This document shows positions 6,991 through 53,935 of a DNA stretch of 64,000 bases, one piece after another; position 1 is the first letter of the stretch, and every line of letters begins with the position of its first letter. The stretch covers positions 1 through 64,000 of the forward strand of contig QPGO01000132.1 in the NCBI GenBank assembly GCA_008632985.1. The letters are read 5' to 3'. The notes under the pieces are model-generated. The model made no database searches, was not told where the DNA came from, and saw nothing but the letters and a program-made list of their open reading frames with translations. Position numbers and translations under genes: made by a program. The stretch is from Psammoneis japonica. Its lineage: Eukaryota.

Positions 6991-7479
6991 AAAAAAAAAG
7001 AAAAAAAAAAGACCAGCTAAGCATCTAATAATAAGATGACCAAGACCACTCGGTCTTAGCGCAATTACTTCAGTTTCTTTGTGCTGTACTCGTAACACCG
7101 TGACACTCTACTTGTAGCTACTAGAGTTCATATTATTTTTGAAGCATGTTGTCGCAATACAGTGAATGTGAAATGGTGCCCAAAAGCATGTTCAGTAAAG
7201 GGGTTTACGTTTCGTGACTGCGCGGAAGCCAACGTCGGTCAGCGCGCGCTCGCCGCTCGCCCAATCGTGGCTCGCCACGTCGTGTATGTACAGCATTCAT
7301 ACTGTAGGGCTATGATTGATACTGTACGGTACGTTGTGGAGCGGGCAGGCGCTCGCGCGTTGACAAACGTTTCAAATTTTTCGAAAGTCAATCTTCAAAA
7401 AATCTACTTGCATGCCTGCGGAAGAAGATTAAATTTTCAATTGCCCCCCCGGCCGGGCTCTTTTTTTTCGCTTTCTGTA

Positions 7480-25954: not shown

Positions 25955-26278
25955 AAATTTGGCACGGTTATTGATCAGCACAGTAGGGCATCCTTCCGGC
26001 CGTCTTTAAACAAGTTTGCGATCACTATGTAGTGTCTAGTGGTGGCTTGCTTGCTAGCCACAGTAGTACGAACTGTCACGGCGCTGTTGCATAATGTGGT
26101 TGCGTTGGAAGTGCGGTAGCTCTAGGCCTAGCAGAAGAAACCCGCAACAGTTTCTCAATTTTTGTTTTGCAAGCATTCGCTGCTATACTGCTTGCTATAC
26201 ATTAACATTGAACTGTTCCCTTTTGGAACAGATTGTGCAATTAAGCAGATAGCAGGCTTTGCCCTGGATAGAAGCTTC

Positions 26279-26893
26279 TTATTCTTGCCCATTGTTGGGA
26301 CGATAAATCCTGTCAGCCGTCACTGGATCAAAAAGTAATTGTAGCATGTGGGGCGCCATATAGGAGTAATACAACAACTGAATGGCCAACGGCAGTGTCA
26401 CCACGGCAATAGGCGATAAAAACAGTGGACCCGCAATCAACTCCAAGAGACGTCCCACGGCAACGAGTTGACATATTATACCCCCAACAAAAGCAAAGGT
26501 CCTGTGCGGTTGCCAAGTCAGCAAGTAAAACATTGTAAAGAGTATTCGAAATACTGTAAATGTGTAAACAAGCACTTTGAGTTCTTGATCTTGTCGATTG
26601 CCAAGCGCCACGGCGTACAAAATGAAAACGATCCAGGCGTGCATGTTTTCCGTGTCGTTGCGCTGAATGTGGCTCCATCGAGTGACCCATTGATTCTCGC
26701 TAACAGTGGTGGCAATGTGGCCACCAATGTGAAAGTCTTCTCGGTTTCGAAAGTTTCGAGTTTTGACACGAAGAAATCCAATGACTTGGGATGTAAAGGT
26801 GCACTTGAGCGAAAGGATCGAAACACCGAGAGCGACAGGTGCCAGTGACGGGTATTGGTCAAAGACGTTCTTGACTGTAGCAACCGTCATCAT
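26279..26893 (-). CDS. MAPEG family protein (microsomal GST / prostaglandin E synthase-like)
   Basis: Motifs R..F.N.ED, RWSHIQRNDTEN, FTVFRILFT...QPHRT, with hydrophobic helices. Confidence 0.75.
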   Translation of the reverse strand: MMTVATVKNVFDQYPSLAPVALGVSILSLKCTFTSQVIGFLRVKTRNFRNREDFHIGGHIATTVSENQWVTRWSHIQRNDTENMHAWIVFILYAVALGNRQDQELKVLVYTFTVFRILFTMFYLLTWQPHRTFAFVGGIICQLVAVGRLLELIAGPLFLSPIAVVTLPLAIQLLYYSYMAPHMLQLLFDPVTADRIYRPNNGQE

Positions 26894-27589
26894 CAATGTT
26901 TCTAAAAATATCAGCGGAGGAAACAAAGGAAGACGAGGCTCCGGATACAAAGCACAGTTCCTTCTTACTGTAGACTAGAGAGTATATTTTACTTTGCATG
27001 TCGTTGGATGATTCCGATGATACATCATGCAAATAATACGATCGGCTCGATCGGGCGCCGGGCGCCTCGGGAGTTTTTAGAAAATTTAATACCCTATTCA
27101 ATGATGCATGCTGTAAAAAAATTTAGTATAACGATTTGTGGGGAGGAGGTCGCGCATCGCGACCAACCGCACGACTCATGCGCGAGCAAAAAGCATCATC
27201 TTGCCCACAAGGTCGCAATGGTCACCACTGTAGAGAAGCAGCATGATTTTGCCAAGTGGTGGATCATTGCTGTCTAACTGCCAAATGGGCAGAAGAAAGG
27301 AGCATACACACGCATGTGATCAGAGGAGCTTGGTTGGCAGTGAACAGGAGGCTCAGCGAGCAAGTGTGCTGTCCTGGAAATGTGCATGAAGCCGGTGCTC
27401 CCAGCTTGTGCGCTGCATGTCTGTTTCAACCTCAATTGACTGGTTGAGACCCCTTCATTGCACAGCCTAGCTTCATCAACCTTGCCAGTCACTGCTGCAT
27501 CTTTGACAACAAAATCAGGAGCTGTGAGAGAGAAAGTCTGCAAAAAGACGTCGAGTCTGTCCAGCGTTCACCAACCCCCCCCCCCCCCC

Positions 27590-30500
27590 AATGCACAATT
27601 TGACAGACTCTTTCAGCACAAATTCCAAATTTGGTGTGCAAGATGATTCTTCAGCGGGTGTCACAGCAACAACAGAGGGACAACAACAATGGACACTGGA
27701 GCAGTTGTTGCCGTTGCGCCGTGTCATGAACTGGCCTTGGAGTCTGGTGGAGGAGGTGACTGTGCAGCTGATCTTCAGCAACGGTCTCCCTCCGAGCGGC
27801 AATGAGGATTTGTTTGAGCAACTCTGTGTTTCAGCATTGTTTCCATTCATCTTGGGTGTCCCATCAAATCAGGTGCAACTGCATTTGGTGGATGAGAACC
27901 GGGTTGGAGATCCAGAAGAAGACTGTGGGGGGGCACATTCAACAAAAAGAGTTGAGGAGTTGAAAAGTCATGAAGATGAAAGTGAAGCTGTCTCGCCTGC
28001 TGGTTGCCATGACTGTTTCATGGAGATTTGTGGGTGTGCTGCAAGAGGGCAAGAAGGTCTCCCTGAGTGCAGCTTCTGCACATTTTCTGGCCATGGTCAT
28101 GGGACAGGGCAGATGGACAAATGTCATGTCAAATGCGGAGCAAAAGGCCACAAGTTGCGCTTTGTTCATTTGGGGGCAAAGGCGACAGTTCTCATGATCC
28201 TTGACATTTGCGGCAATCTGCACGCGGTTGCCTGCATGAGTGACAGGGTTCCTCCAGGTGATGCAATGAGAAGATGGAAGAAGACCATCAGAGTGCACGA
28301 CATCGTAACAATGTCTGCATGCGTGACAAAATTACATTGCTGTGTTACAAAATTTACTTGTCTGCACATGACGGTTTTTGTCATTTGGTCAATTGTCAAT
28401 CTCCTGCTGTTCTTCATGTTTGAACACAGATGCTTTTTAATTTTTATGCTCTGCCTTTTTCACAACAACTGACGATCTTTAACGACAAGCCAAACACTGC
28501 AATTGCATGCAATGAAATTTTCATCATGCAAAGTGTGCACCAATTGTTTGATCAACAACTGTGCTCCAATTGGCCCATTCGTCCACATCGTCCTCTTCAT
28601 TCCATGTGTCTTGTCCACTCTCTTGCAAGAATTTCAAATGTGCCGCTGCCGCATTGGCCTGACCACAGCGCCGACTTTCAGCAGGCGATTGTGGCTGCCA
28701 GGGAACATTTCATGGCACAGGATGACTGAATGGACTGTGCAAGTGGACACTGCATAGAATCCATGAGGAAGCAATTGCTCTGAAACTGCGCACATCTGAT
28801 GCATCGAGAGTTTCCTGTCGTGTCGGTGGTTGGGAAAGCCTTCCGATCTGGAAGAAGCTTGTCTTGGAGTTTCAGAAGAAGACATCAGAACGAAAGCAAC
28901 AGAAGGTGCTCGTGCCGCACTGCTTCACGTGTGCCACAATGACTTTGCCAATTCTGAAAGGATCAAATTCATCATGTTTGCAAGAAAGAGTCAGGAAATC
29001 ACTGTGAGTGAATGACAGATTGATGTGCATGTCCCATTTTAGAAACAAATCTGACCAACACTTCCTTCTGTCCTGTGTGGCCCAAACAAACAGGGCCTTT
29101 TCTTGCGCTTCTGCTGCTCCTGGACATTCTTCATAAACCAAAACATTGTCCCCAATTGCTTCGATGGGGAGAACACGTAACTTGGGTGAGTGCTGAGTCT
29201 TCTCAGGTGTTGAAAGCCAGTTGTTTTGTTTGTGATCAAGCTGCCAGTGACCAACCAAGTCTGTGTGCTGATGCCGTTGCCTCACAGTTCTCTGGTCAGC
29301 TTGACAAGCAGTTGGATGGACCACTGCAAAAATCGATCCTGTGTCTTCCTGTTGAAGAAACATGGCAAACGGGAGGGAAACTGTTGATCGCCCTTTCGTG
29401 CGCCAAAGGTCACACAGGCAAAGTCATGCCATCCCTCCCGTTTGCATTGCAAAACTCTGTCTTACAAGTCAGGTGTGCATTTTCACTGTCTTCACCAACA
29501 CAATCCTCTCACTTTTCTGACATGAAGTTCAGTGACACAGGATGAACTTGGCAACGAGCATGCAAGCTGTTCCACTCAAACGTCACAGCGCCAATCCCTC
29601 GGTTGCAGGTGAGAGTGAGTGCACTTCCTCCCAGCGTGTGATTGTCCGTCCTGACTCTTGATGATTCCTTTTTCCCAGTTGGCAAAATCCAACTGTCAGC
29701 TGAAATTGCGGCATTGAGCCTCATTTGGTCCTCCATGCGTGACACAACCTGCTTCAGAAAACTGTCGAGGTCATGTTGTTGTGCGGCAGATGACAGCAGC
29801 TTGAAAAAGTCTTTCAAGAGACATTCCCCCAACCCTGCGTCAAAGTTCATCGCATGTCGGCAACAACAAAGAAACACTGGGAGATGGAGTGTTTCATAAA
29901 GCTTTTGAAGCTTCCGCCCGCATCCTTCTGTTCGCAGGACGAATTGCACTGTCCGGTCAATGAGGAGACGGATTTTCTTGTTTATTTTCTGAATGGATGA
30001 ACTGGGAGTTGCACTTGTGATGGGTGGATTGCCCAGCCTGCACCATGCGTGGAAGACAAGAAGGTCCTCGAGCAATTGAATGAAATTCCGGACGCTGCAG
30101 TTGAGTCTTTTTCCCTTGTGTTTTTTCTTTTTTTGGTTGTCGTCACCATCCTCAGCCTCACTCTCCTCTTTCTCATCCTCATTTTCGTCCCAGTCACCCT
30201 CTTCGGACTCCTCTGACCTTTCATCGTCAGAGTCCAAGTGCTCACTGGGTTGGCAGCAACTCTCAAAGTTCACTTTGGGTGTCTTGCGATTCTCTGGAAC
30301 AATGGGTTCGTCTGCGTCCTCATCAAGGAAGCATGACTCACATGCGTTTCGTCCCTCACTGGTCAACAGGAGAAGGTAGAAAACAAAAGCCATTCCAGCC
30401 CAGTGGTGAGAGTTGAGGAAGGTGAGCGACGTTGCTCCTCCTTTGAAGTTTGTTCGCAAAAAGGATGCTTTGCAAGTTGACCGGTGATTGCTGAAAATCC

Positions 30501-33500
30501 TTTCCACTGTGCTGTCCACCTCACTTGCGACCACAGGTGTCATGCTGTCTACAAATGAATTGACTGCCCTTTTCAAGGTGCCATTTTCAAAGAGATGCAT
30601 CATGTCGCTTGCTGTCGCAAGGGTGATGCCGCATGGTTGTGCACCAAAGTCTGCCTCAAAAAGACAGTTGGCAGGTGCGTTGTGTTGCTTGAGGCAATGC
30701 AAGATGCCCAACCAGTGCTTCCTTTCTTGGTCTGATCTGTTGTTGTCGTTGGCCTTAGTTTGCACTTGGTGGAGATCCAGTCCTCGGACAAACTTGCATT
30801 CAATCCATGGGTCATCCAGTTTGTTGAAGCCAGTGAGGCAAAAACGACAGCAACGTTGACGACAGTTGTGACCTCCGCATCGTCCGATGAGACAGTCGCC
30901 ACTTTTTGCATCTCCTGTGATCAGAACGATCAGCGGGATTGCGTGGAGGTGTCGCATCTCATCCCCTCGTCGCACACATGTTTTCATGCCTCCTTTTCTC
31001 ATGACTTCCAAAAGTGGCTCCAAAACAACACGCAAGCAAGTGTGGCAGTCTCTCAATGAGCGTCCCTTCTCCGCCTTGCGATTGTTTGAGAGATTCTTTG
31101 CCGCAGATGACGACATCTTTTCCAAATCCGGGAGACAACCAATTGGTTTCCAGACACTCTTGTCTGACCATTTGTCGAAGGCAACATGCACAGAGGTCAT
31201 GATCACTGGTTCTCCGCAATGTGATCCCATCCCTTGTGTCCCACCAGTCTTGTTGAGGCAAATGACATTGCACTCGAGAAATTGTTTCTCCGGGTCAGTT
31301 GTCCATTCTTCGTAACTGCGCCTGTGCCACTCACCCGCCAAAAGGCACTTGTCATCCAGTCCCTTCGCTTTGAACTTCCCAAAAGGATTGTCTGGATCGG
31401 CCACATTCTCTCTGCTGCACCACAGGTGAGGATCGAGTGAAAACTGTTCCCAAACCTTTGTGAAATCCCATCTTGGCACTGACACTCGTTTTGGCAAACC
31501 GGTTTTGAAATTTTTGGTTTCTAGAGTGACAGGAATAGACTCGCTGGGTGGAAGAGGGAAATGATTGGTCAAGGCATGCATCAACTCTTTTCTCCTTGGC
31601 AGAACTGCACCAAGCTCAATGTTGCTGTCACCAGTGTGCCTCTCAATGAAATCAACAATGCAATTGCACAATTCCAGGGGAGCACCACGTGTGTCCATGA
31701 TCTTCTTGCACAACTCTGCGCAAGCTCCGTCAAGATTTGTCAAAGAGGGAGCAGAAGCCAAGGCCTCTTCTGCAGGAGCATCACACCTGATCCCCAAACG
31801 TTGATCCTCATCATGAATGTCCTCTTCCTCCTCCATTGTCATGTCCAACACTGCAGCAAAGGATTGACCACCGCCAACATCCAAATCGTTCATTGCCAAA
31901 AGTTCAACTCCATGCATGCTGTGGTTTGATGAAATGGAGGACATGTCGTCCATTCCGTGTGGTGCGTCATCCTGGGAGGGGAACAAGGGGCTGCTGCTCA
32001 GATCACTCATTGAAGATCTTGGGAATCTGCTGTGAGTGGATCGCCTTGGATGGGATTCGTCATCATCAGAGGACGAAGAGGAAGAGCTGCCACTTTCTTT
32101 GGGTGGCCCCTCTGTTGTGGCAGGAATGTCACTTTGATCTGGGACCAGATCTTGGGTTTGCAACTCTTGGGCAACTGAGTGACACGTCGGCGAGCATCTC
32201 CAATGGCAGGCTGTTCGCAAAAAACTTTGGCCACAACCTGGACAGAGAAGAGGGTTTCCGTCCATTGTCAATCAGACAACATTGACAGGGCCTTCATCAA
32301 GACTCACACTCGTCGTCCTTGTCTTGTGGATGAGAAGGGAAAAGAAGAACAACATGCAAAAAGTTGGTGGGAAACTGGCAAACATTACATTGCACTCCAG
32401 ATTTGGATGATTCTCATGGGTGTGACATGTCTGCATTTTGATTTTTTATCTGGCACTCACAATGAACATTGTGCTTTTTATTTGCTGTCAAAATGTGGGA
32501 TGTTGTCTCCGTTGAAACGCAATGACAGCCACATCAAAAAGCAAGCTGGACTGTTCGTTGTCATGTGCAAATGTGTTTTCAAATTTCAGTGTTGCTGACA
32601 ACAATTTGTGCAATGTTTTGGAGAAAAACAGAGTGCCTGGCTGTCTCAACACGACCCAAACAACGGTTGCACTGTGGAACAGTGCCACTCCTCTCATTGT
32701 TTCCGTGAAAAGATCAAGATGTCGCATCCAGCACCACCGGCAAAGAAGAGAAAGAAAAATGAGACTGTCAAGCCAATGAGCCCAAGACTTCAGGCAGTGT
32801 TGAAGAGAACAGGTGCGCAGGCAGCGCATGGTGCATTGAAATCAGAAGTGGAGAAGGTGGCTGGAAATGATCTGTTTCCACAGGTGAAGTTTCTCAGTCC
32901 ATCAGAATTGGCAAGCAATGGGAGCGTCTCAATGTTTGTCAAGAAACAGATTGCTGGTGGCAACATGGACACTTCAAACTGGTCAGGAACTTGGGAGGAA
33001 TGGGCAAAAAAGGCGGTAAAAAGGCAAATTGACAATCGCAGAAACACGGTGTGTTCGGCTGTTGGGGTGGAGGCAATGGCCCGTAAGTCAAGTGACCAAT
33101 GTGTGTGACTCGAGAGTTGCACGTGTCTCACAAGAAGATGATGGTGATGCTTCATCTGTGCAGGCATTGTCGCTGAGGAAGAGGGAAAGGAAAAAGAAAA
33201 GAAACTCAAGGCGGCAGCCAGGAGGAAAAAGCAAGGCAGGAAAAAGTCAAGCTGTGACAAGAATGAAGAGAATGATGTCCCGTTTGTGCCGACATGGGAT
33301 CCGTTTGGCCTGGACACCATCACCGGCGGCAAACGAAGGAACAAGCAGGCACACAAGTGGTTCTGTGATCACATGCCACCTCAAACCACATGGAGCAGCG
33401 CTGTCAAAACTGGGAACGCACAGGTCTCACAGTTGTTTGCGGTCGGTGACGAAGCTTTGGCACTGTCAGCTGTGGAGAATTGTTGGCAGGTGTGGGCATG

Positions 33501-34010
33501 CAGGAACAAGGAGGAGGCGGTGGAAGAATTGGGTGAGGAAATGGAGCCCGAAGAAACAAGGCCTGCCCCTCGGCACATGAAGCCAAAGAAACAACGAGTG
33601 TCTTGGGGAGACAAAGGAATCAATTGGTTCGACGATTTGTGCAAAGAGGTGACAAAAGACAGAGACTCCAAGGAGGGCAAGGAGTTTGAAAAGTGGCACG
33701 CGGAGATCAAGAAAAGCGAGTGCGAGAAGTCCGGAGAAGCAAAAAAGAAGAAGAAAAAAGCACCAACTGGTGACACGGAGAAGGTGAAGGCAATGAACAG
33801 CCCAATGGTGGAGAGCAGCAGGGACGACAATGGCAACGACGATGAGCAGGAGGAAGGGGCAAAAGGCAAAACGGACGACGGAGGAGACGAGTCCGATGGA
33901 GACGAGTCCGATGATGATTGTTGGCTCAGTTTGAGAGAGTTGCAGCAAGAAAATGTGTGCACAGTTGACACAGCACTCGGTCATTGCACTGCAGACGTAA
34001 CAAGGGATTG
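27590..34010. mobile_element. Putative Plavaka/CMC(EnSpm)-like DNA transposon relic with transposase and accessory ORFs; termini not identified
   Basis: Transposase-like ORF on the minus strand, a divergent intron-containing ORF (32718-34011), and a convergent ORF relic (27591-29035). All are TA-depleted. Confidence 0.6.
29030..32271 (-). pseudogene. Plavaka/CMC-like transposase, hypermutated
   Basis: N-terminal CPGC...H...C finger. Motifs ITGDAKSGD...CRFC, DMMHLFENG, KLQKL(H>Y)ETLHLP, NFDAG.GE. Only ~3 Tyr in 920 aa. A TGA at 29509 truncates a frame whose likely C-terminus continues toward ~29030. Confidence 0.65.
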
Positions 34011-34011
34011 A
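32718..34011 (+). pseudogene. Transposon-associated accessory ORF (basic/acidic, NLS-like PAKKRKK), hypermutated
   Basis: GT-AG intron 33083-33163 joins two frames (AMA-R-IVAEEE). Motifs DEALAL..EN.W and W..KGINWF..LCKEV..DR. No Tyr. Confidence 0.5.
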
Positions 34012-37000
34012 CTTGGCCGATGAAATGATCACGCACTGGCATGTGGCAACAAGGTGGAGGCAGAAATGGTGATGTGGAGACAGTGAAAAATGGCACACAT
34101 GATTCTCAATGAGTCATTGCAACATTGGTGTGCCAAACTTGCAACCAGAGGTTGGCCTTTCATCACATGACAACAATTTTTTGCAACATTTTGACAAATT
34201 GTCATCATGCAAATCTGCACATTTTTAACATTTCGTGCACTCTGATGACCGTGGCATGTCAAAATGTTCCTTTTCCATTGGCCTGAGCAAAGAGCTCCGT
34301 CTCATGGTGCTGTCGGGTTGGATGGGTTGGTCAACATGATGTGGATTGTGCACATGAAGAGCACAAGCCTTGTGAAATCTTGGGGCTGCTGCTGAGCCAT
34401 CTGGTTTGCTTTCCCGTGGCAAATTGCATCCCAGCCGTGACAAAGGCCTGCAAGTGTGATGCCAATGAAGACCGTGACTTGGATGTGACATTTTGCAAGA
34501 AATTTCAGGGGTTGAATCCTTGGCGCTTTTGTGAGAATCCCGACAAGCATCTGCCATGCACTCACACAGGTTTGAGTCATCTGCAACAGCTTGTTGACAG
34601 TGGGACATGTTGCCTGTCAAGCAGGATGCATCAAAATGCACCCTCTGTCAGCAAGAGTGGGAGTGGTTCTCCACATGCAAGCTTGCTCTGACATTTGATG
34701 ATGGGGACAAGGTTGGTCACAGCATTGTCAAATTCATCATCAAATCAATTCTTCAATGGCACCAGAAGGATCCTGAGAGACGCTGTTGGAATCAAGCATT
34801 GGCACCCGGCTGCAGCAACAAAGGTTGCTCTGACTGTGAAGCCTGCAAAGCATGGCACATGTTGCTGGAAATGGCGGGAAAATTCCGCCCCCAGCTCATT
34901 CATTAATTTTGTTACATTGGCGAGCAACATGTGACCCGTTGTGTCAATGAAGACAACTCAAATGTAGATGTGGGCTGAAGGGTTTGGCCCTCTGTCATCC
35001 AGACCTTCTGAAGGTTGTTGAAAAAGTCGAGTGTTGGATTGCCACAGGCTTCAACAGAAAAAGAGGCAATTTTGTGAGTGCACAAACTCCTCCACACTCA
35101 GAGGACATCATTTTTGGTTTGTCCAGGTGTGAAACAATGTTGTCGAAGTGTGTGTGCACAATGTGCAGTGCATGATCAAAGTGGCGCAAGGTTCCACCTG
35201 CAGTGGAGAGCTGGAGCCAACCTGCAGAACACACATGTGGGCTGAAAAACAATGCTGCAAGTGCACCACAGAAGGACTCAACAAAACTGTGATCAGCATC
35301 CTTCCCTTGCAAACACAAACACATTGCTGGCAAGCTCAGGTGCTGATTTTGGCACCACTGGAAATGTGCCAGCCAACAGCAGCAGTCGCGGTGCCAGCTG
35401 CAGCATGGATTAGATGCAACAAAGAAAATTCTTTTCAAGAGGATCTCTGTCCAGAGAATCCTGGTGCACACTTTTGTCAGAAGCCAGTTTGAAGACAGAA
35501 CAATGAGCTCATTTTCTCAACCAGGGACATTGGGCAGTTTGTTGGTTTGACTGGAGAAAAAAAAACTCAGCAATGTGGCCAATGGACCCACTCAGATGAA
35601 AACTTGCTTGGCCAGCAAAGATGGCAAGTGCACTTCTCACTTCTGCCCCTTTGCCTCCAGCAGCAGCTGTGCTTGGCCAACTGCTGCCCATGTTGTGCTG
35701 GCTTTCAGCATTGACTTTTGCAGTTGCTTTCCTGTGCCAGTGCATGTTCATTTTGTGTTGGAAACAAAGCCAGCAAAATCAGCTGTGCACACAGCCATCC
35801 AACAGCAACACAACAGCTCTCACTCAGCAAAACATGCACATTCTTGCCAAATTCATTGCACACAATGGGGGGGAGCACTGATGGGGTTTGTTCTGAGGAC
35901 GGAGGTTTGAGGCAGAGATGTGGTCATTGAAACACATCCATCCACTGAGTTGTTTGATGGCTGTGCCCCACAAAATTCACCTGCTCACTGCTTGTCAGTT
36001 GTTGATCCTCCAAGAATGCTCCAAGACCAAAATGACACCAGCCTGCCCACCAACCATGTCACTTCAATGAGTGAGCACTCATTTCCGCCCACATGCTTGC
36101 ACTTCTAAGTTTCTGAAAGAGTTGATGCTCAGTGCACAATGCATGGTGCTGCATGGGCCACACAGCTGGCCCCACCTTTTGCTTTCAATCACTGCATTGT
36201 CGCCTCATTCTTTCTGCTCCAAGCAGCAACATTTTGTGCAAAAGTTGTGTTTCACAAGCCAGGATCATCCACAGGTGTGGGCCCCAACAAGAAGAAATCC
36301 ATGACATGCCTCTCAAAAAGTTGGGTCAAAAGTTCTGAGAAATGCAGCTCTTGAACTGGTTCATGAAGACTCAAAGGATGAGTGCACTTTGCTGCTTTAA
36401 CAAGCTTTTCTAGATAAAATGATGATGCAGTGGATCTGACTTTGCCAAAAGGGGCAAAGAAATTCTGTTGCATGCACAAAACCTTTCCTCCAGCTCCCCA
36501 TGGTCAACCAGACAATCAAGCTCAAAATGCAACTGAAGAAGATGTGTGAAGCAGTCTGTTGAGTGCTTGTTGGGTTGAAGAAGTCAGATCTGCCAACAAC
36601 AACCACCAACTTCTGCAGTTGAGACAAACAAGCTGCAAGAAGCTTGGGAAGCATCTTGCTGATGAGCAGGTGGAGCAAGAACTTCTTGCTTGTGGTGCTG
36701 ACAAGGACAAGAAGGATCCAACAAATCACATTGTGAGCATCAACCAGAGCCACCCAGATCCAAAGCCCCATCACCAGGAATGGACTGGTGGCTCATCAAA
36801 GAAGAAAGTGGCCATTGTCAGTTTCCCAGACTGGAGATGTTTTCCACATTTTGAAATGCTGGACATTGGTTGGGTGGAGCTGAAGTTGCTGCAGAAGCAT
36901 GGCATGCCAATTGTGCCTCACAGATTTCATTGATGGCAGGATGTGCATCACAGATTGGATTGCTTTTGGGCAGTGGAACGTCAGTCTGTTCGCTCAAGTG

Positions 37001-38462
37001 AAGATCAATGTGTGCCAATGCCAACACCATCTTCTGGATCTGCGCTGCATCTTGAACTCCCAAGTGATGAGCAAGGTTGCTGCTCTGTCATCTCCTGTGC
37101 CAACTTGCCCAAAGGCTGTCCTCAGAAACTCAAAAGAAGCTCATCAGCCAAGTCCATTCTCAGATTTTCCATCACAGAGATGCTTGCTCGCCTTGCTCTT
37201 GGAGCCATCAATGCATGTTCTTGGTTGGGGCACACAGTTTTCACTTGACTCAAATTCAACAGGATGTGTTTTCCCCCTCACATTGCGTGCATGCAAGGAT
37301 TGTGTGGATGTGGGCAGAAACAACATTGATGCTCATGTTGCAACACCCAGGCTTAAAAGTTTGGGAGTGCACATGGCAGACCAAGTGACCAACTTGATGG
37401 GAAATGCTTGGTGTTGTGTCAGGCTGTGCCAACATTCCTCAATCCCAGCACGCAGCTGCATCTCTAGTTCTTCATGTTTGCATGGCATCCTTTTGATCAT
37501 GTGCCATGTTGATGTGATGAATGAGTTCAAAAAGTCTGGTGTGGTGGCAACAAAGCCACTGAAAACCTCAGCAAGAAAGACTTGAGTGCCAGCATCAAAG
37601 ATGCAAGGTTCCAAGATTTGTTGCCAGAGATGCTTCTTGGCAAGTGGCTGGACATCATCATCAAGAAAGATTTTGAAGTGCCCAAATCCTTGGCATTTTG
37701 GTCAAGTTGCCCCAGGTGGTTCAAATCTTTGAGCCACCACATTGTCAACCAGCAGACAGAGCTGTTGTTGGAAATAAAAAGCATGCTGCAGACAGTGTTG
37801 AAAGAGAGGGTGGAAGACTGGCAACGGCTGACACTGTCTTTGGAGGGCAAGGGTTCTGTGCAGGAAAACAAAAAGAGCCAGCTGCAGGAGCAAGACTTGT
37901 GCAGAGTCAAGACCAAGCTTGCAATTTAAAGATGCCAGAGTTGTCAAACAGGGTGGGAAGGCACCATCCATCTGAAGCATCTGTTGTCAACCCGCAGTTG
38001 CTCCTGGAGCCTGCACCTCAAAGATCTCCACCATCTGACTCAATCATGCCAGAAGCACTGGTGCACCACAGGGCTTGTGCAAAGTTTGTGCTGAGAACAA
38101 AAAGGCAACAAAGACAAACCAGTGCTGCATGCTCTGCAGGACTCAAAGAGAAACAGCTGTGCTGCTGGTGGGAGGACACCCAGGGACTGGAAGAGTGTGT
38201 GTCTGCAAAGCACATTGTGGAGAAATCAAACCTCAAATGTGTCTTGGAACTTGTTGAAAAAGTCACCACCAGCAATGAAAAGAAGATGCTGAGAATGTTG
38301 GTGGTGGGAACAATGGAGCTGGAGGCATGTGCGCCACAGCAGTGCCACTCAGAAATGCTGCATGACCCAAGAAATGTGTCTCCACAAAGAAGCAAGGCAA
38401 AGATCTAGAAGTTGAAAGGCAGAGAAAAAAAAACAGCAAATGCCAAGAGAGCCACGCACCAG

Positions 38463-38911
38463 GTGCAACACACAGCTGCTGACAAGAGTCAATGCATCAC
38501 GGTGACGTGTTGCAGCCTTTAAATGTCACAAAGGGCGTGACAAAAACAACCTTTTGTCTGCATGCATGCTGCACCATGAATTCACAATGGAGTGGTGCAT
38601 CGCAACCACTGGGCAGGAGGCCAGGGGTTCGAAACCCTGAGTGGGAGTTGTCTGCAGCAACGTTGATCACTGTCGAGCGCGTAAAACTCTGTGCAGTTCT
38701 GTGTGTTCCTTCGCACGTGCCCACACTGTTCCGCCAAAACCGTGCAGTGTCAGCACACGTTAGCAAAGAGCCGCATGGACGCGTGATGCATGGGGAGGAG
38801 TGCAACACACAGCTGCCAATGAGAGCCAATGTGTCACGGCGACGTGTTGCAGCCTTTAAATGTCACAAAGGGCGTGACAAAAATGACCTTTTGTCTGCAT
38901 GCACACTGCAC
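38463..38911 (+). repeat. 112-bp direct repeat (38463-38574 and 38800-38911)
   Basis: gtgcaacacacagctgc...gacgtgttgcagcctttaaatgtcacaaagggcgtgacaaaaa...ctgcac occurs twice without gaps. Confidence 0.9.
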
Positions 38912-40908
38912 AGGCAACTGCACAAGAAAGTGCTCAAGACTGCCTTGCTCAGAAAAAAATGCGCTTGGCCTGGAAACAAATCTGCCAGCTCATTTTTTCC
39001 ATGACTCACAACTCCACATTTGGCATTGTCATGATTTCATCATGCAAGAGTTGTTTTGTGATTGCAAGTGTCCTGTGGGTGCAGCAGCATGAGTTGTGGT
39101 TTCTCATGGTGTTGACATGTCGCACAAATTTTGTTGATTTTTGACCTTTTCACAAAAAGCACTTTGAGCCAGCCTGCTCAAATTGACCATGTGCATCTTG
39201 CAATTTGGGAGGAAGAAAGAGCTCAGACACCAATGCCAAGGTCTGCACACTCACATGCGTGCAGACCTCAACATCAAATTTCATGTGTGAGAAATTTGTC
39301 AGCTTCAGAGCACTGCATTTAGCTCCACAAGCCACACCCGCATGCTGGGAGCTTTCTTTTGAGAGCCTCTGCAGACTGCAGCAGCAACTGGCAGGTTGTC
39401 AAATGGCGTGGGTTGGCACACAACACAATGATGTTGCTGAGATGCAGATGGTCATTTTCTGAGCAAATGGCCTGTGTGTGCTGTCAAGTTCACAGCACAC
39501 ATGAGAAGTTGCTGACAATGAAGGGTTGCTTTCCCCCTGTGTGCACTGTGAACATGCACGCAAATCTCCCTCATGTGTGCTGCAGCATGATGTCCACAAT
39601 GATTGTCATTTGAGCGATTGCACCTCATGTGTGGTGCAAGTCTCACACCACACACAAGGGGGGAGATGTCGCCAAGTTTTGCCGCACATGAAGGCAAATT
39701 TGTCACATGCTCAATGGGGCAATTTCTAGACTCATCATGCCTTGCACCTTGTCATTTTAATCAAGTTAGTCAAACACAGCTTTAAACCACCATGATGCAG
39801 TGCACATGGAGAGGACAGATCTTGTGGCTCAAATGTCGCCAGTCGTGAGCTTCTTGCCAGTGCCGCTGGTGCTTGGTGCATTGCAAGCAGCACGACAGTG
39901 TGCTCTCTTGAGCCGCTGTCTGGCCAAAGCTGCACAAAGTTGGTTTGCTTCTCTCTGTGTGGCTTTTTGACTTTGCTTGTGCTGTCCTCAGTGCCACACA
40001 AGCAAGCCTTTGTTTTCTCATGCTGCTTGTCATTTCTGGCTGCTCTTTTCATCTTTTCTTTTTGTTGTTGCTCTGGCTGCTTGCTGCTCCAACTTGTGCA
40101 GGGCTGCTTTCTGCTGCCACTGCTTTTGACAATCTTGGCATTTTTGTGGAGAAGTGCTGCTGTGCTGGGAGCTCTGTGCTGAAGCTGCAACGATGATTTT
40201 CCAGCTCTGCTGAGAGGCAATGGAGTGCACGCTTGTGCTCTCATTTGACAGAGGCAGTGCGCGGCAGCAGAGAGACATCTTCAGAGCAAGCTCCAATGCT
40301 TCCACATGCTTGAAGATTTTGAAAAAAGCACCGAGGCAGTCCTTTGTGATGCAGCTCTTGACAAAAACTGGGTTGCACCCCAAAGTGGTGCTGAAAACAT
40401 TTTGTGAGGTGCTGCTTGGTCGTGGACAACAGCAACCACATGGGGGGCTTCTTGGCTGGCCAGCTGGGGTGGCAACAAGTTCTTGCTGGGTTGTGCTGCT
40501 GCAGAGCATCTCAACTGCTTGCTTTTGGCACCCAAAACAGCCTCACAATTCTCCCTTGTGGCACCTTGTTCATCCCTTCCGCCTCTGTTTCTTCAAGCTG
40601 CAGCACACAGGGTCGGCTTTTTTTTCGACTCCTGGCAGCTTCTTGCTTCTGCACAAACTCCTTGTGTCTGCACCCGACACTTTGCTTCACAAATTGTTCC
40701 TTGTCCTTGAGCGCCAAAGCTGTCTTCGGTGGTGCTTGTGAAAAATCATCAGCTCACCCCACATAAAATCCGGGTTGCTTCTAGCTGGCTCCACTCGAGT
40801 CGAATCAATCAAAAGTTACCAAATGGCCAGCAATTTGCGTGCGAAGTTCGCGCGATTGTCGCGCAAAGGCTCACGGTGGGGTGAAGGCTTTTGGCTTTTG
40901 CGGCCACC

Positions 40909-41637
40909 ATGACAACGACAGCGATGACTCCAGAGCAACTCAGAGCCGTGACACTGCTAGATGAAGACGAGGAGCCGGTCGCATCGAAAAGTGTGATTGG
41001 AGAAGTGAACGAGGAGCGCCGTCGCGTCTGGTTGTCGCGACTAAATCAAGATGAGCAAGAGCAGTTGAAGCCGGCGGATAAACTCGTTGCCGTGTCCTGT
41101 GTGGGCGGTCGCGGACCCCTTGAACATGCTGTAAGAGTACGAGACGGCGTAGGTACTCCTCTTTTGCTCGAGTGCAAGGTATCCTACGAAGAGTTACCTC
41201 CTTCCATGCTAGTCGAGTACACGTTTGATAATGCTACGTGGCGTCTCTCTTTCGTCTGTCTCGACTATTTGTTGAGTTTTCGCAAGTCCAAATTTCAAGA
41301 TTGGGAAAAGCGAATAACTAACCCTACTTGTAAGGCTGAACTGAAGCGTATGCTGGCGATTGGGGTCGTGACGCGCGTCTACGACCACTACATGTTTCCA
41401 TCCACTGAAGCAGAAATGCAGGACTATCAAGTGACAGATGAAAATGGCAAGACCGTCGTTTTACCAAGGCCTGTGGCGGCCTTGCGCATTTGGTCAACTG
41501 AGAAACAAGCATATGAACCTGTAGATGCGACACTGGACGGTGCTCCAGATGATACCGAGGGGTACTGGAAACAGCTCATTGCGAAACTCAAGACTGAATA
41601 TCCTGACGAAGTAGAGGAGCTCTTGAGTGCGACATAG
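40909..41637 (+). CDS. Hypothetical protein (242 aa), intact gene island
   Basis: Uninterrupted ORF with natural amino-acid composition and normal Tyr and TA content. Good ATG context (gccaccATG). Confidence 0.75.
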   Translation: MTTTAMTPEQLRAVTLLDEDEEPVASKSVIGEVNEERRRVWLSRLNQDEQEQLKPADKLVAVSCVGGRGPLEHAVRVRDGVGTPLLLECKVSYEELPPSMLVEYTFDNATWRLSFVCLDYLLSFRKSKFQDWEKRITNPTCKAELKRMLAIGVVTRVYDHYMFPSTEAEMQDYQVTDENGKTVVLPRPVAALRIWSTEKQAYEPVDATLDGAPDDTEGYWKQLIAKLKTEYPDEVEELLSAT

Positions 41638-42308
41638 TTCAGTGTATCACACTAGAAGTAGCTGGGACGTATTGGAGCAGTCAATGCCTGGCGGGGGTAT
41701 TGACATTGACTGGGATGGCAAGAGAATGAGACACTCTTGAAATTAGTTGAGTAAGACAAGAACTCATGGAATGAACGATACCATTAATTTATTATCATCA
41801 CTTTTGATTACATCGTTCTCCATCATACTTGTGACTCGTGACGCTGTTTATCGATGAGGCCGTTAGACTGGGGTGAGCCTTCGTTAAAACGTCTCTACGC
41901 TTGATCTCCCTGGCATGGAACCAGCCATCTCAGATCTCAGTGCTAATGGCACAAATGGGTGTTCTTCTGGGAATTGCCTTGAGCATGACAAACGCAAGTC
42001 CACAAATCTCTCCACTCCTTGGGGCACGCTGAATTAACAGGATTTGCCAAATCTGCAAAAAGCACTGTGAATCTACCAACTGTTGCCTGCTGCAGAACAT
42101 GGATCCATGCTGCAGAAGAGCCATTGTGGCATCTGTCTTTTGGCCTTGCTTGGGCAACTGATTCATTCTTTGAGAGCTGCTTTTGCTTCCTTTGCTCACT
42201 CTGCCACATCTTCTGATGCTCATTGCTGGAACCCCCCGGAGGTCAAGATCTTCACTTCACATGCAGGTTGAAACAAGCCCGCAGACCAAAGGTGGATGCC
42301 AGCAGTTC

Positions 42309-46851: not shown

Positions 46852-47127
46852 TGACAGAAATTGAAGGCAAATGGCAAGAATTCAAACAATGGCTCCTTGC
46901 TGCTGTCTAAACAGCAGATGAGTCTCCGCTCAGAGACCGTTGCAGGAGCCGAAAGACGTGCAAGTCGGTGCAATCGGGCTGCTGTCATCATTCTTGTGAG
47001 CCTTGTGGCTCGAAAGCAAACTACATCGCGTGCGAACGCGCAGAACTGAAGCACACAAAACTGTGTGCGGCAAACTAAACAGTGCGCGACATGTTGCGCG
47101 CACCCAAATCCTGTTCAAATCCTGTCA
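46852..47127 (-). repeat. 3' LTR
   Basis: Ungapped match to 53660-53935. Adjacent to a PPT-like tggggag on the minus strand. Confidence 0.96.
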
Positions 47128-47142
47128 CTCCCCAGTTTGCTT

Positions 47143-50100
47143 GAGGAGCCACAGAAACAGATTCAACTTCGGATGGAATGAAGTTCCAGAACATGAGGGG
47201 GCGGAGAAGGTCCCAGACTTGGGAGCAACCCCAATGCTTGCTGAGAATGTCAGCAGGGTTGTGGGAGCCTTCGATGAAGTGGAGCTCAAGGCAACCAGAG
47301 GCAATTGCCTCACGCACATGGTGGAATGACAGTGCAGTGTGTCGCTTGTGTAACTTGGAGTGCGGGATGGTGGCACTGTCTACAACCGACTTGTTGTCAC
47401 CGAACATGTAACTGATGTCACGGATCTGGACGCCAAGGCAGCGCAGGGTGATGCGCAGGTCGACAATCTGCTCGACACAAGTCCTTGCGGCAACAAATTC
47501 AGACCCGTGAGTCGCAGTCTCCACGGTGGCTTGCTTCTTAGAGAACCAATCAGCCGGGAATTTGTTGAGGAAGTGGAGCATTCCCATGACAGAGCGTCTG
47601 GTGAGCATGCAATGGTGCAAGTTTGCATCGACGTAGTGGGTGGCAGTGACGAACTTGCCAAGGGGCGGTGGAGCGTCCTTCGGGATCATCTCTTCTGCTT
47701 TGCCGCACACGGAATGCATCCATTCATGGGCCGGAGCAGGGAGATCCGAGTGGTCGGGCTCTTCCGTGCGAACGTGGAGAGCGCCGTGTTGCATCTTGGA
47801 GAGGTGCCCACAGACGCGTTTGGCACGATCCAAGTGGCCTTGACGGGGCGCAGCTTGGAAGCTAGAGAGTGACATGACGGCCGTGGTGATGTCAATTCGA
47901 CCAAGGGACACTGCCCATTGGAGTGAACCAACAAGAGACTGGAACTTGTGAATGCCATCGGGCCCCAGCAATTCGGAAGTGTCCAGTTCGGAGTGGTCAC
48001 CCTTCTCCAGAGGTGACAGGGCGTTGGTGGCAGGTTTCTCCCCAAACAGTCGGGTGCAGCTGTCGACCATGCGCTCGATGTACTTGCGCGGAGACAGGCA
48101 CAAGGTGCCGTCGGGATCCCGGGAAAAGTCGCAGCCCAGATGGAACTCAATCGGTCCCGCACCCTTGAGCTTGAACTTGTGCTTTTCCATGAGAGTGTCG
48201 ACAAAAGATTGAGGGTCCTTCATGGCAATGGCGAGGTCATCCACACAAACGGCAATGCATTCGCAGTGGTTGCCGTTCCTGTGCATCCAAATGTCGGGTT
48301 CGGCATGGCAGGGGAAGAAACCTTCAGCTCGCAGGCAGTCGGCGAAGCGCTCATGCCAGCGGAGGCCAGAGCTGCGCAGTCCATGCAGGGCCTTGTGGAT
48401 GACAAGGATGTGGCCTTCGAGTTTGCCAAATTCAGGTCCGGCTGCAATGTAGAGCTTCTCCTTGGTGGTGGCTTCAAGGTGGGCATTGCCAATGTCGGTG
48501 GCCCATGTCTCCAACTCATTGAGTTCAGCCAGGAAAATCATCAGCCGAAGGCCACGGAGGGAGACTGCTCCGGAGCAGACACTGTCGATGGGTGCGTCCG
48601 TGAGGTGCCCATCGGCTGCGAGACGTGCCTTGTGGCGACCGTCGTGTTTCACGTCGCACACCAGGTGCACTCGGATCTTCTTGTGTCCCGCAGGAGGAGT
48701 GGAAGACTCGGAGGGCCCGCAGTCATGGAAGACTTCGCATTCCTCGAGTTGGTCCATCTCGAGATTAGTTGCGTCTCCCCATTTGCGGTTGCCGTTGCGT
48801 TCGTCTGGTGACATGGCGTGTTTGCAGTTCCGGGGAACTTCGCATCCGTGCTTGCAGCGAGGTGCAGTGCGGAAGGAGCGAAGCTTGGCTTGGTTGGCCA
48901 TGCAGAATGGCTTCTTCTGGCGCCTCGCGATGGTGCGGAACCACTTCCAGCCATCAGTGTCGAGAAGTCCGTTCTCTCGTGCATGGATGGCGCAGGTGAC
49001 AGGGTCGTCCTTGGCGATGATGGCAAGAGGCTCGGACGTGATCTCCCCACTTTCCCATTCAAGCACAATGTTGTAGCTTGAGCCTTTCCAGGTTGGGTCA
49101 TGGGGCTTCAGAGGTCCTTCGTGTGACACAATGCATCGAAATTTCCAAACAGCAGTGTCTTTGTCTTCTTGCTCAATGTGATTCATGATGTCGTTGTAGG
49201 CCAGGACTTCCTCACATTCGTCGTTGTTGACAGAGCAGACGAACTTAGTGAGCTCGGGATTGCCATTCACTTTCCATTCGTGGTCTTCAACGGCCTTGAC
49301 GATGCAAGCTCTGTGGCGTTGTCCATCCTCTTGTGGCTGCATGAGGAAGGTGCATCCGATGGTGTCTTGCGGATCAAAAACTGGCATCTTGGGTGTCCTG
49401 ATCTCCCCATCAGGTGAATCGACGGGGTTGTCATCATGGCGAGATTTGATGATGGGTTCAGGTGGCTCCCCATCAGGAGGATCAAGACGCAGGTTTCGAG
49501 CGGCAGGATCAGTGGCAGCGGATTGTACGTTGGACCGGCAGAGGATCTTCTGAGTCTCGTCAGAGAGGATCTTGAAGGTCATCTGGTGGCCAACGTGCTC
49601 AGCAATGCCAACAAAGCGTCCACGCAACTCACGGGATTCGGACGGCCAATCGGAGTCATCGAGGTGGAAGCACACAGGTTCCCACCAGTGAAAGCGAAGC
49701 AATGGGCTGATGTCCGGGGTGGAGCCAGTGAGAGTCTCGAGGGGCGTGTGCCAGTGGAGACTTGGGGACGCTGCATGGTTGAGCACGAAGCACACGTGCA
49801 TGAGCGCCAGCAGCCATGTGTGGGCAGGCGAACCGAAACGATCCATGACAGTGTTTGCCACGCGCTTCACGGTCTGGTGTTGACGTTCGGCAAAGTTTTG
49901 GTGTTGCTGGTGAGGCTCACTTTGCCAGCTGGAGACAAAGAGGGCTCGTAGGATCCCGAGCACCTTGTTGCTGATCTCAACTTGAGCACGGTCGCCAATG
50001 AGTTTGGATGGAGCACCACGCTCACGGATCTGATCCTCGAGTGTGTTGACAAACTCTTTGTCCGTTTTGGTGCCACAGACGTCAGTGACGGTAGACTCGG

Positions 50101-52744: not shown

Positions 52745-53659
52745 GACAGACAAAAGCGGTGTCAGGACAAGCGATTCTTGTTGGGATGCGAAGGTAGACT
52801 TGAAACTTGGGTGAGAAAGGACTTGACTTGAAACAAACTTGACTTGAAATCTTGAACTGCCTTAAAATCAGAAGTCGCCGGGCTGTGCCATCCCATTCGT
52901 TGTCAAGTGCCAAACTTCCCATCCGGTCCGTAGAGTTGTGCCGGCACGTCCGAACCCGCAGCTGGCGGTGCTTTGGGTTGCTTACGAGCGGAGCAGCGGG
53001 TTGCAAACCCCTGCAGGTGAGCTGACCAGAGGTGGACAAGACCCCCGAACCATTCTCATTTTATGTCGGTTGGATTTCCCGATCAGGCTGGCCAGTTGAT
53101 GCAGGCATCAGGCGCTGTGGACGAACGAACAAACGCGGGAAAACACCCTCGCCCCAACGCAGGCTGCAATCACGGCTGCTTGCTCTCACAGTCGTCCTCG
53201 TGGACCTGGTGGAACTGCAGAGCACCAGCAGTCCAGGGCAGATCAGGTGCAATGGACTCGGCGTGCTTGTAGAGTGGCAGCAAAGCCGCAGTCCAAAGAG
53301 TGGGTTCAAGTCCTTGGCCGTGGAGACATGCACAGATCCTTGAACATGTGGGGTTCTTGACCGTTGACCGTTGAATGGGCACATCAAGGGATGAGGATCA
53401 AGGGTGGACTTGGACATGACCGTTGAATGCATGTCTTCAGCGACAAAAAGCAGCACAATCAATCCAGACATGCAGCGGCAAGGAGACTTGACGGTGACGT
53501 TAACTTCCTGCCGATGCCCTGGTGTTGAATGCGCGCAGACTTGCCGATGTGCGTAGAACACATGCGGAGGTCCACGCAGAATTGAAGTGGCGTCGTCGGC
53601 AAATCAACGACGACGACGGCGGTTGCTCAATGGGTTGACAATGAGCAAGACTGTTGATC

Positions 53660-53935
53660 TGACAGAAATTGAAGGCAAATGGCAAGAATTCAAACAATGA
53701 CTCCTTGCTGCTGTCTAAATGGCAGATGAGTCTCCGCTCAGAGACCGTCACAGGAGCCGAAAGACGTGTGAGTCGGCACAATCGGGCTGCTGTTGTCATT
53801 CTTGTGAGCCTTGTGGCTCGAAAGCAAACTGCATCGCGCGCGAACGCGCGGAACCAAAGCACACAAAACTGTGCGCGGCAAACTGAACAGCGCGCGACAT
53901 GTCGCACGCACCCAAATCCTGTTCAAATCCTGTCA
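53660..53935 (-). repeat. 5' LTR
   Basis: Ungapped match to 46852-47127. Confidence 0.96.

Follow-up and report, generated by a model that had tools for sequence, protein, structure and literature searches.

How can a transposon gene keep an open frame of 920 codons and contain almost no tyrosine? The question is raised by a locus in a 64,000-nucleotide stretch of the genome of Psammoneis japonica, a diatom and thus a stramenopile (contig QPGO01000132.1, positions 1-64,000; the whole stretch is called the window below). The open reading frame (ORF) lies on the minus strand at 29509-32271. An initial annotation, which assigned it to a Plavaka-like DNA transposon, had noticed the scarcity of Tyr and odd runs of Cys and His, such as LPVFLCCCRHAMNFD and GRCGGHNC. 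Both strings are present, and the frame holds exactly three Tyr codons (one TAT and two TAC) compared to 43 codons for Cys and 36 for His. The answer that we favor, with a probability of about 0.78, is that the locus is a dead copy of a high-copy Plavaka-like transposon, which was swept after its insertion by a DNA-level hypermutation of TpA in the diatom nucleus.

The dinucleotide TpA is nearly absent from the locus. Its observed-to-expected ratio is 0.06 across 27590-34010 and 0.05 within the 920-codon ORF; in the former interval the ratio is 1.59 for CpA, 1.56 for TpG and 0.52 for CpG. The bias of the fungal repeat-induced point mutation (RIP) type, an excess of TpA and a deficit of CpA and TpG, was tested for and the opposite was seen. 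A 500-bp map of TpA across the entire window is sharply bimodal. When the two kinds of sequence are pooled from this map, the host-like zone (29.6 kb, or 29,569 bp) contains 1,083 TA, with ratios of 0.53 for TpA, 0.98 for CpG, 1.18 for CpA and 1.23 for TpG. The zone resembling transposable elements (TEs) (33.8 kb) contains 154 TA, and the corresponding ratios are 0.07, 0.46, 1.67 and 1.63. Stretches with TpA below 0.25 are without exception TE-like or unannotated, and the host genes range from 0.4 to 0.9. The transposon itself has 27 TA in its 5,962 bp compared to about 218 expected at host density, a deficit far beyond chance. Between the TE and host zones, the combined losses of TA and CG balance the gains of TG and CA within about 10%. 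The depletion begins abruptly. The final host TA is at 27468, the next TA is at 28306 and the TE block starts at about 27536, so that the border is within ~70 bp of the host flank. Stop codons in all six frames number 2.77 per 100 codons in the element compared to 3.2-3.4 in host DNA. Chance ORFs are lengthened only modestly, because TGA rises as TAA and TAG vanish.

The missing tyrosines have been replaced by Cys and His. Tyr makes up 0.3% of the frame compared to 1.9-3.2% in 13 homologs, and Cys 4.7% compared to 1.7-3.3%. In the closest homolog, P0001, a 571-residue fragment with 62% identity, 14 aligned Tyr residues correspond to 8 Cys, 2 His, 2 Tyr, 1 Ile and 1 Ser in the window, and the reverse replacement, of Cys by Tyr, does not occur. 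The run FLCCCRHAMNFD of the window is FLYYYRHAMNFD in P0001; likewise, FLCCCRH stands for FLYYYRH and HAWCRLG for HAWYRLG. The second gene of the element, described below, behaves in the same way (ENYW has become ENCW, and WAYK has become WACR). When both genes are pooled, the 34 sites that are Tyr in homologs and Cys, His or Tyr in the window divide into 22 Cys, 9 His and 3 Tyr. The DNA of the relatives is not depleted, with TpA at 0.42-0.66 in 20 of 20 metagenome loci. The Cys and His runs and the near absence of Tyr are thus explained by TAY codons having turned into TGY (Cys) or CAY (His).

The time at which the change took place can be read from a complete Copia-type retrotransposon with long terminal repeats (LTRs) in the same window. 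Its TpA ratio is 0.0-0.2, while its CpG ratio is still 0.7-1.07. Its Tyr sites, defined as positions at which 8 or more homologs align and 60% or more of them have Tyr (20 of the 120 listed homologs were used), number 55 and are occupied by 27 Cys, 17 His, 6 Tyr and 5 Phe, so that 44 of the 55 are now Cys or His. This is the same spectrum of replacements as in the DNA transposon, in line with the claim of the initial annotation that the two elements share a signature. The two LTRs, which were identical when the element integrated, differ at 21 of 276 nucleotides, which comprise 6 doublets of TG versus CA, 2 sites with TA versus TG, 6 with CG versus TG or CA, 1 other transition and no transversions. 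The doublets go in both directions within each LTR. Only ~0.3 CpG-derived doublets are expected from the 16 shared and 6 half-changed CpG, given equal CpG mutability, and therefore most of the doublets are former TA sites that changed independently in each LTR. The TpA change of the Copia element happened after integration. A rough estimate from the LTRs gives a changed fraction of ~87% for TA site-copies, ~14-16% for CpG and ~0.25% for other sites, and the rate of change at TpA exceeds that at sites that are neither CpG nor TpA by a factor of at least a few hundred.

A pair of CRAL/TRIO (Sec14-like) paralogs, one in each zone, provides an internal comparison. The 27 TA of the normal copy correspond to 13 TG, 10 CA, 4 other dinucleotides and no TA in the depleted copy; that is, 23 of the 27 sites are converted. 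Only the copy in the TE zone is mutated, whereas the copy in the host zone is normal. The depleted copy has 0% Tyr, yet it still gives a CRAL_TRIO match of 47 bits. The initial annotation had counted host genes among the targets along with a DNA transposon and a retroelement. Both kinds of element are indeed reached, but the ordinary host genes of the window are not affected, and the displaced CRAL/TRIO paralog is the only such gene that is.

The conversion shows a preference for certain neighboring bases. In the two genes of the transposon, Tyr sites preceded by a purine now hold 10 Cys, 9 His and no retained Tyr, and those preceded by a pyrimidine hold 12 Cys, no His and 3 retained Tyr; His thus occurs only after a purine (9 of 9; Fisher p 0.005). 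The Copia element shows the same trend (p 0.06), with 9 Cys, 11 His, 1 retained Tyr and 3 other residues after a purine and 18 Cys, 6 His, 5 retained Tyr and 2 others after a pyrimidine. The combined odds ratio is 5.3 (p 0.003). The gain of TE over host zones is 22.1 per kb for YTGY and RCAR together compared to 5.1 for RTGR and YCAY, and the summed losses of TA and CG match the gains of TG and CA in each flank class. Among the surviving TA, YTAR makes up 53% in TE zones versus 17% in host zones, and RTAY 4.5% versus 31%. The preference is for RTA to become RCA and for TAY to become TGY, RTAY being the most sensitive context and YTAR the least.

The transposon does not occupy 27590-34010, as had been proposed, but 28286-34247. 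The 15-mer CATCAGAGTGCACGA occurs at two places in the window and nowhere else, the copies being inverted relative to each other, and two matches were seen in 0 of 100 shuffles; weaker similarity between the terminal inverted repeats (TIRs) reaches 29 nucleotides. The contigs of run X1, which come from one sample and study, are single-copy (depth ~58-62) on the left as far as 28338 and on the right from 34219 onward. In the interval 5,706 contigs were placed, and their summed depth, which is not a copy number, is 2,300-25,000, or 40-400 times the flank level of ~60. The repeated unit is therefore 28286-34247, as given by the TIRs, the contig breaks and the depth. Joints of internal deletions were found in X1 contigs from 29298 to 32282 (depth 889) and from 28607 to 32421. 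The element is present in high copy and has internally deleted, non-autonomous derivatives. Differences between copies are mainly transitions (90 A>G, 93 T>C, 88 C>T and 86 G>A, compared to 3-12 for each of the eight kinds of transversion). The best 40 of 416 copy-difference rows were examined, and among them are TG/CA doublets at 31438-9 and 31575-6. The left subterminal region, 28306-28480, retains 7 of the element's 27 TA, mainly in repeated TTAC/GTAA motifs (AAATTACA, GTTACAAAA, AAATTTAC), which may be repeats bound by the transposase, with flank contexts that make them refractory to conversion.

The predicted transposase extends beyond the 920-codon frame. Its homologs are ~250 residues longer at the C terminus, and tblastn follows the window gene to about 29037, past an in-frame stop at 29509-29511 (Trp in P0001) and frameshifts near 29440 and 29353. 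The gene thus appears to be a pseudogene of about 1,075 codons, the C-terminal piece of which lies in the frame of ORF 28872-29423. Other copies carry C at 29509, restoring TGG (Trp), in 13 of 13 X1 contigs, and one X1 contig has an extra C after 29353; the stop and the frameshift are therefore confined to this copy or shared by only some of the copies. None of five window ORFs, the 920-codon frame included, matched a Pfam family at E<=0.01. A database search gave 16 relatives, which include, in addition to P0001, eight proteins of 1,128-1,267 residues with 35-38% identity. The Plavaka family, PF18759, was matched above its cut-off by four of the seven relatives that were scanned. In the ESM Atlas, 17 of the 30 nearest clusters belong to the Plavaka set, with a best score of 0.95. 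As regards a putative DDE catalytic core (RNase H-like fold), 36 columns that are invariant in the homologs, including several with Asp, Glu or His, are kept in the window copy. The Pfam and Atlas matches, together with the perfect TIRs, the high copy number and the deletion derivatives, support the original assignment to a DNA transposase of the Plavaka kind (EnSpm/CACTA-related). The initial annotation had named two refuting outcomes, an ORF that is no DNA transposase and Cys/His residues shared by unedited homologs, and neither was observed.

The two plus-strand frames upstream of the transposase, of 169 and 287 codons, appear to be the exons of one real conserved gene that is divergent from the transposase. 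In three of the 20 related metagenome loci (L008, L011 and L019; best E 9e-20) it has the same placement, on the strand opposite the transposase and upstream of it, and L011 shows the same two-piece layout. Exon 2 has 87 relatives at E<=1e-3 and 8 at E<=1e-10 in a representative library. Neither the second gene nor 13 of its relatives matched a Pfam family above cut-off; a match to MCM4_WHD in these scans, at 19.7 bits compared to a cut-off of 24.4, was disregarded. The description of the element as having multiple ORFs thus holds for this gene. It does not hold for ORF 27528-28472, which is almost wholly outside the element, nor for ORF 28872-29423, which is the C terminus of the transposase. 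ORF 27528-28472 had no Pfam match and no match in the 20 related loci. The tract that holds most of it, 27536-28285, is probably an older decayed insertion, and there is no TA from 27468 to 28306. In L011, a perfect 14-bp inverted pair (1602-1615 and 7016-7029) encloses both genes, its sequence being unlike the TIR of the window; no convincing TIRs were found in L008 or L003. Next to the Plavaka-like elements of two of these loci there are further frames: two of 376 and 692 codons without a Pfam match at 6956-10213 of L011, and a helicase-like frame with the P-loop GVPGAGKTH at 3-992 of L019.

Table. Positions of the features discussed in the text, in window coordinates.
Feature	Position	Strand	Basis or remarks
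Plavaka-like DNA transposon copy, TpA-depleted	28286-34247 (5,962 bp)		TIRs at both ends, contig breaks, depth
Left TIR, CATCAGAGTGCACGA	28286-28300	+	Perfect 15-mer
Right TIR, same 15-mer as left	34233-34247	-	Perfect inverted match
Possible target site duplication GACC	28283-28286, again at 34247-34250		If the TIR starts at A 28287
Alternative 2-bp target site duplication AC	28284-28285 and 34248-34249		Read from the sequence
Predicted transposase pseudogene	29037-32265	-	tblastn of 7 homologs
Intergenic spacer of the divergent gene pair, presumably the promoter region	32272-32598		Gene positions
Second gene, exon 1 (169-codon frame), predicted	32599-33108	+	tblastn matches in L008, L011, L019
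Second gene, exon 2 (287-codon frame), predicted	33148-34011	+	Relatives, alignment
Single-copy flank without TA, beyond the element; contains most of ORF 27528-28472	27536-28285		X1 contig 27575-28338, depth 59.7
Copia-type LTR retrotransposon, complete	46852-53935	-	RVT_2 match; 276-bp LTRs 46852-47127 and 53660-53935; 5-bp target site duplication TTGAA
CRAL/TRIO (Sec14-like) paralog, TE zone	1357-2555		~65% identical to the paralog in the host zone
CRAL/TRIO (Sec14-like) paralog, host zone	5718-6990		~65% identical to the paralog in the TE zone

The sequence of events that we propose is as follows. An element with 15-bp TIRs, a transposase of ~1,075 codons and a divergent two-exon accessory gene would have inserted by cut-and-paste. 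The copy would then have been hypermutated along with the surrounding TE block, TpA changing to TpG or CpA nearly to saturation by an A:T to G:C transition on either strand. A slower decay of CpG to TpG and CpA, typical of methylated repeats, would have run in parallel. The process is limited to TE domains or domains that look foreign, with sharp borders, and makes no distinction between elements of class I, elements of class II and a displaced gene copy. As for the chemistry, a deaminase of the ADAT2/TadA type or another one may be brought to silenced chromatin, where it would convert adenine to inosine, which is read as G. The role of the process would be genome defense. A broader proposal, for which we see the odds as even, is that diatoms have a dedicated system, targeted to chromatin domains, that rewrites TpA to TpG or CpA in all transposon classes. 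It would prefer 5'-R-T-A-Y-3', saturate at ~2-3% background divergence, run in the reverse direction of RIP and probably employ a DNA adenine deaminase. Together with the case of Bigelowiella, discussed below, it would constitute a widespread and possibly ancestral genome defense of the stramenopile-alveolate-rhizarian (SAR) group.

Several observations weigh against this account. The Plavaka assignment of the ORF itself is marginal: at a permissive threshold PF18759 was its sole Pfam family, at 14.3 bits and E 0.024 compared to a cut-off of 26.3, and the relatives that passed did so narrowly (27.6-34.5 bits). The search for TIRs and a target site duplication (TSD) that had been suggested for the element gave perfect repeats and an ambiguous duplication, which can be read as AC (2 bp) or GACC (4 bp). 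The termini, CATCAGAG, begin with CATCAG and not with CACTA, although the termini and flanks may themselves be mutated. The flank rule is not strict. Six His residues follow a pyrimidine in the Copia element, four of the six LTR doublets are in mixed flank contexts, and the direction of change in the CRAL/TRIO pair is as the rule predicts in 6 of 13 cases. A strict strand rule of 'TAY only' was rejected on these three counts, and a ~3-5-fold preference survives. Run X1 is probably the sample from which the window was assembled and so is not an independent check of its base calls. Mutation of this very copy after its own insertion is probable by analogy with the Copia LTRs and from the two doublets between element copies, and such doublets could in principle also stem from CpG. 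Finally, the best-supported differences between copies inside the element, among the best 40 of the 416 rows, are mostly of the CpG type and not of the TpA type.

This last point would be expected if the master copy had been TA-poor before it amplified, owing to selection against TA, a TA-poor donor or one ancient hypermutation, and the copies had simply inherited its composition. The similarity of many contigs (1,376 of the 5,706 placed are at least 99% like the window copy) fits as well, as does the finding that no copy in those 40 rows keeps TA inside the element where the window has TG or CA. Such an inheritance is nevertheless quite improbable. About 90% of the conserved Tyr residues are replaced, even in the most conserved blocks, a loss that would probably disable the transposase. 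Depletion is just as strong in the second gene, the non-coding parts and the unrelated flanks, TA is normal in all 20 related loci elsewhere, the neighboring Copia element shows action after integration, and copies of the element differ from one another by TG/CA doublets. Moreover, other copies of a second high-copy repeat, at 37948-39215, retain TA at two positions: at 38719, which is TG in the window, they make up most of the depth (24,617 of 34,387), and at 38764, which is CA in the window, a minority (11,164 of 26,775). A closer competitor keeps the same process at TpA in DNA and changes only its chemistry: thymine could be the target, T in RTA being modified and misread or misrepaired as C, or N6-methyladenine could be lost as hypoxanthine. 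TA being self-complementary, T>C in RTA fits all results as well as A>G in TAY does, which counts against our assignment to adenine. Thymine-modifying enzymes of the TET/JBP type exist among protists, and in fungi they are associated with transposons of the KDZ/Plavaka type. For TadA/ADAT enzymes, however, the native substrate is an A preceded by U, and T-A fits it naturally. Neither thymine modification nor N6-methyladenine is known to yield near-quantitative T>C or A>G transitions. The sole published discussion, in the part of the preprint that is available, proposes adenine deamination (10.64898/2026.01.13.699255). We therefore regard this variant as unlikely.

The remaining explanations dispense with a mutational process at TpA in DNA. 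Editing of RNA or cDNA by an ADAR- or APOBEC-like enzyme before integration, fixed by retro-copying, could draw on the preference of ADAR for U before the edited A, as stated in the available preprint text (10.64898/2026.01.13.699255), and on the Copia neighbor being a retroelement. It is scarcely credible for a cut-and-paste element bounded by TIRs that has no RNA intermediate, in which both strands are about equally converted and the non-coding termini and spacers are depleted as well. The LTRs of a single Copia insertion, furthermore, have diverged by this very change in both directions. With the 23 converted CRAL/TRIO sites and the abrupt border, these results bear out the earlier suggestion that the process acts on chromosomal DNA and not on RNA or cDNA. 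A decay of methylated CpG, added to a genome-wide shortage of TA, would also produce TG and CA. The CpG ratio is indeed only 0.52 in the element, the older flanks having 0.03-0.3, and diatom TEs are CpG-methylated, according to the available text of PMC9998398. As the only cause it is hardly tenable: TpA is 0.05-0.07 in TE zones compared to 0.53 in host DNA of the same window, none of the 27 paralogous TA sites was kept, CpG decay cannot replace Tyr by Cys or His, and the Copia element lost its TpA while most of its CpG was in place. It is also very improbable that a modified base at TpA in silent chromatin was miscalled as G or C during sequencing or assembly. The assembly platform is not stated, X1 may be the assembly's own data, and the X1 contigs lack 35% of the 31-mers that were sampled from 26000-35000. 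Yet where the flanks are single-copy and free of TA, these contigs agree with the window except for 1 difference over 764 bp, 1 over 864 bp and 2 over 3,439 bp. The TG and CA states are stable, differ between the LTRs and obey the flank rule, and a miscall would need almost 100% efficiency. In Bigelowiella natans, the same changes were called as heritable mutations in mutation-accumulation lines sequenced on Illumina NovaSeq, as reported in the accessible part of the preprint (10.64898/2026.01.13.699255).

The surroundings of the transposon have features of their own. An inverted repeat of ~40 bp (32 bp at 97%), at 27536-27574 and 54684-54722, with a C16 run following the left copy, brackets the 27-kb TA-depleted TE block exactly at the start and the end of depletion. 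It could represent the termini of a large composite element or the two ends of one older transposon. Inside the block, a single-copy island at 40760-42080 is spared, with TpA of ~0.7, CpG of 0.7-1.2 and sharp borders on both sides; its 250-codon frame on the plus strand (40885-41637) has no Pfam match. The single-copy sequence to the right of the element, 34248-38500, is the most heavily decayed part of the window (TpA 0.0-0.11, CpG 0.03-0.34, CpA+TpG 1.76-2.02). It presumably consists of much older TE remains, and no Pfam match was obtained for its frames of 233 and 243 codons. The second very high-copy repeat, at 37948-39215, has a summed depth of 23,000-45,000 and an internal direct repeat (38463-38574 and 38800-38911). 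An arginase ORF of the window has best matches of 52-69% identity, all 15 rows that carry an organism name being diatom genera, and no close relative was present in the database searched. These matches led to the rejection of B. natans itself as the source of the window, against which the long exons speak as well, given the intron density of B. natans; an early idea of a dinoflagellate with 5-hydroxymethyluracil was given up on the same ground.

In erasing TpA, the hypermutation mirrors fungal RIP. Such a process has been in the literature only since 2026, from one alga and, as far as the available text goes, with an enzyme that is proposed. The diatom case indicates that the process is peculiar neither to integrated viruses nor to one lineage. 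Any candidate enzyme must reproduce the RTA/TAY flank preference, and high-copy TE families are natural reporters with which the process can be measured copy by copy. The erasure also has consequences for annotation. Repeats without TpA evade homology-based TE annotation, as this transposase does in Pfam, and the skewed codon and amino-acid statistics lead to Tyr-poor, Cys- and His-rich 'orphan' ORFs in algal genomes. If the broader proposal is true, a SAR-wide defense system could be studied in genetically tractable diatoms.

As a transposon, the element resembles the Plavaka and EnSpm/CACTA groups in its large transposase with relatives that match PF18759, its TIRs, its multiple copies and its deletion derivatives. 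A second ORF, such as the one found here, is common in EnSpm/CACTA elements, and CACTA-type termini with a short TSD of 2-4 bp are typical of related elements. It differs in its marginal Pfam match, in its termini, which are of the CATCAG type instead of CACTA, and in a TSD that is either 2 or 4 bp. The named Atlas clusters are fungal, whereas the members of the present branch were found in a diatom and in aquatic metagenomes.

As a target of mutation, the locus invites comparison with three systems. RIP of ascomycetes is similarly a DNA-level, transition-only and dinucleotide-specific process that inactivates both transposon classes and produces a strong dinucleotide bias within fairly sharp borders. 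Its direction is opposite, however, because RIP turns CpA into TpA (C to T), whereas here TpA is destroyed and CpA and TpG are made (A:T to G:C). The pairing of repeats is probably not the trigger, since only one copy of the CRAL/TRIO pair, the one in the TE zone, is mutated here and a single-copy region is targeted in B. natans, as described in the available preprint text. ADAR and APOBEC enzymes share with the present case deaminase-type transitions directed against selfish elements and, for ADAR, the preference for a 5' U (10.64898/2026.01.13.699255, available text). They act on RNA or single-stranded cDNA with strand asymmetry, unlike the changes described here, which affect a DNA transposon and non-coding DNA on both strands and make LTRs diverge after integration.

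The closest parallel is the chlorarachniophyte B. natans. According to the accessible text of Mettrop et al. (bioRxiv 10.64898/2026.01.13.699255), mutation accumulation gave de novo mutations in two integrated viral regions only at TpA, to TpG or CpA, at a rate of ~6e-7 per site per generation, an excess of the order of 1000-fold. TpA-depleted coding sequences of that alga are enriched in DDE-endonuclease and reverse-transcriptase domains, and an ADAT2-like adenine deaminase was proposed as the cause (same source). As far as this text allows comparison, the two cases agree in a change exclusively of TpA to TpG or CpA, on both strands of chromosomal DNA, limited to foreign or TE-like sequence, with TpA depletion and enrichment of CpA and TpG as the long-term trace, and in a large excess of rate, which was roughly estimated here from the Copia LTRs. 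B. natans is a rhizarian, whereas the host here is a stramenopile, and the word 'diatom' is absent from the text of the preprint. Depletion is near saturation here (0.05-0.07) compared to 0.45 in the nucleocytoplasmic large DNA virus region of B. natans. Unlike in the portions of the preprint available, CpG decay accompanies the change here and the target is a defined high-copy class II element. The TEs of Phaeodactylum tricornutum are CpG-methylated by DNMT5a (PMC9998398, available text), which fits the parallel CpG decay in the window. The RTA/TAY preference does not appear in the main text of the B. natans preprint, the figures and supplements of which may show it. The literature searched, in which few subscription journals were covered, contained no report of TpA-to-TpG/CpA hypermutation from a diatom or from this class of transposon. 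The kind of process has thus already been described, in a 2026 preprint on another lineage, and what is new here is its occurrence in a diatom, on a defined high-copy class II element, near to saturation and with a flank preference.

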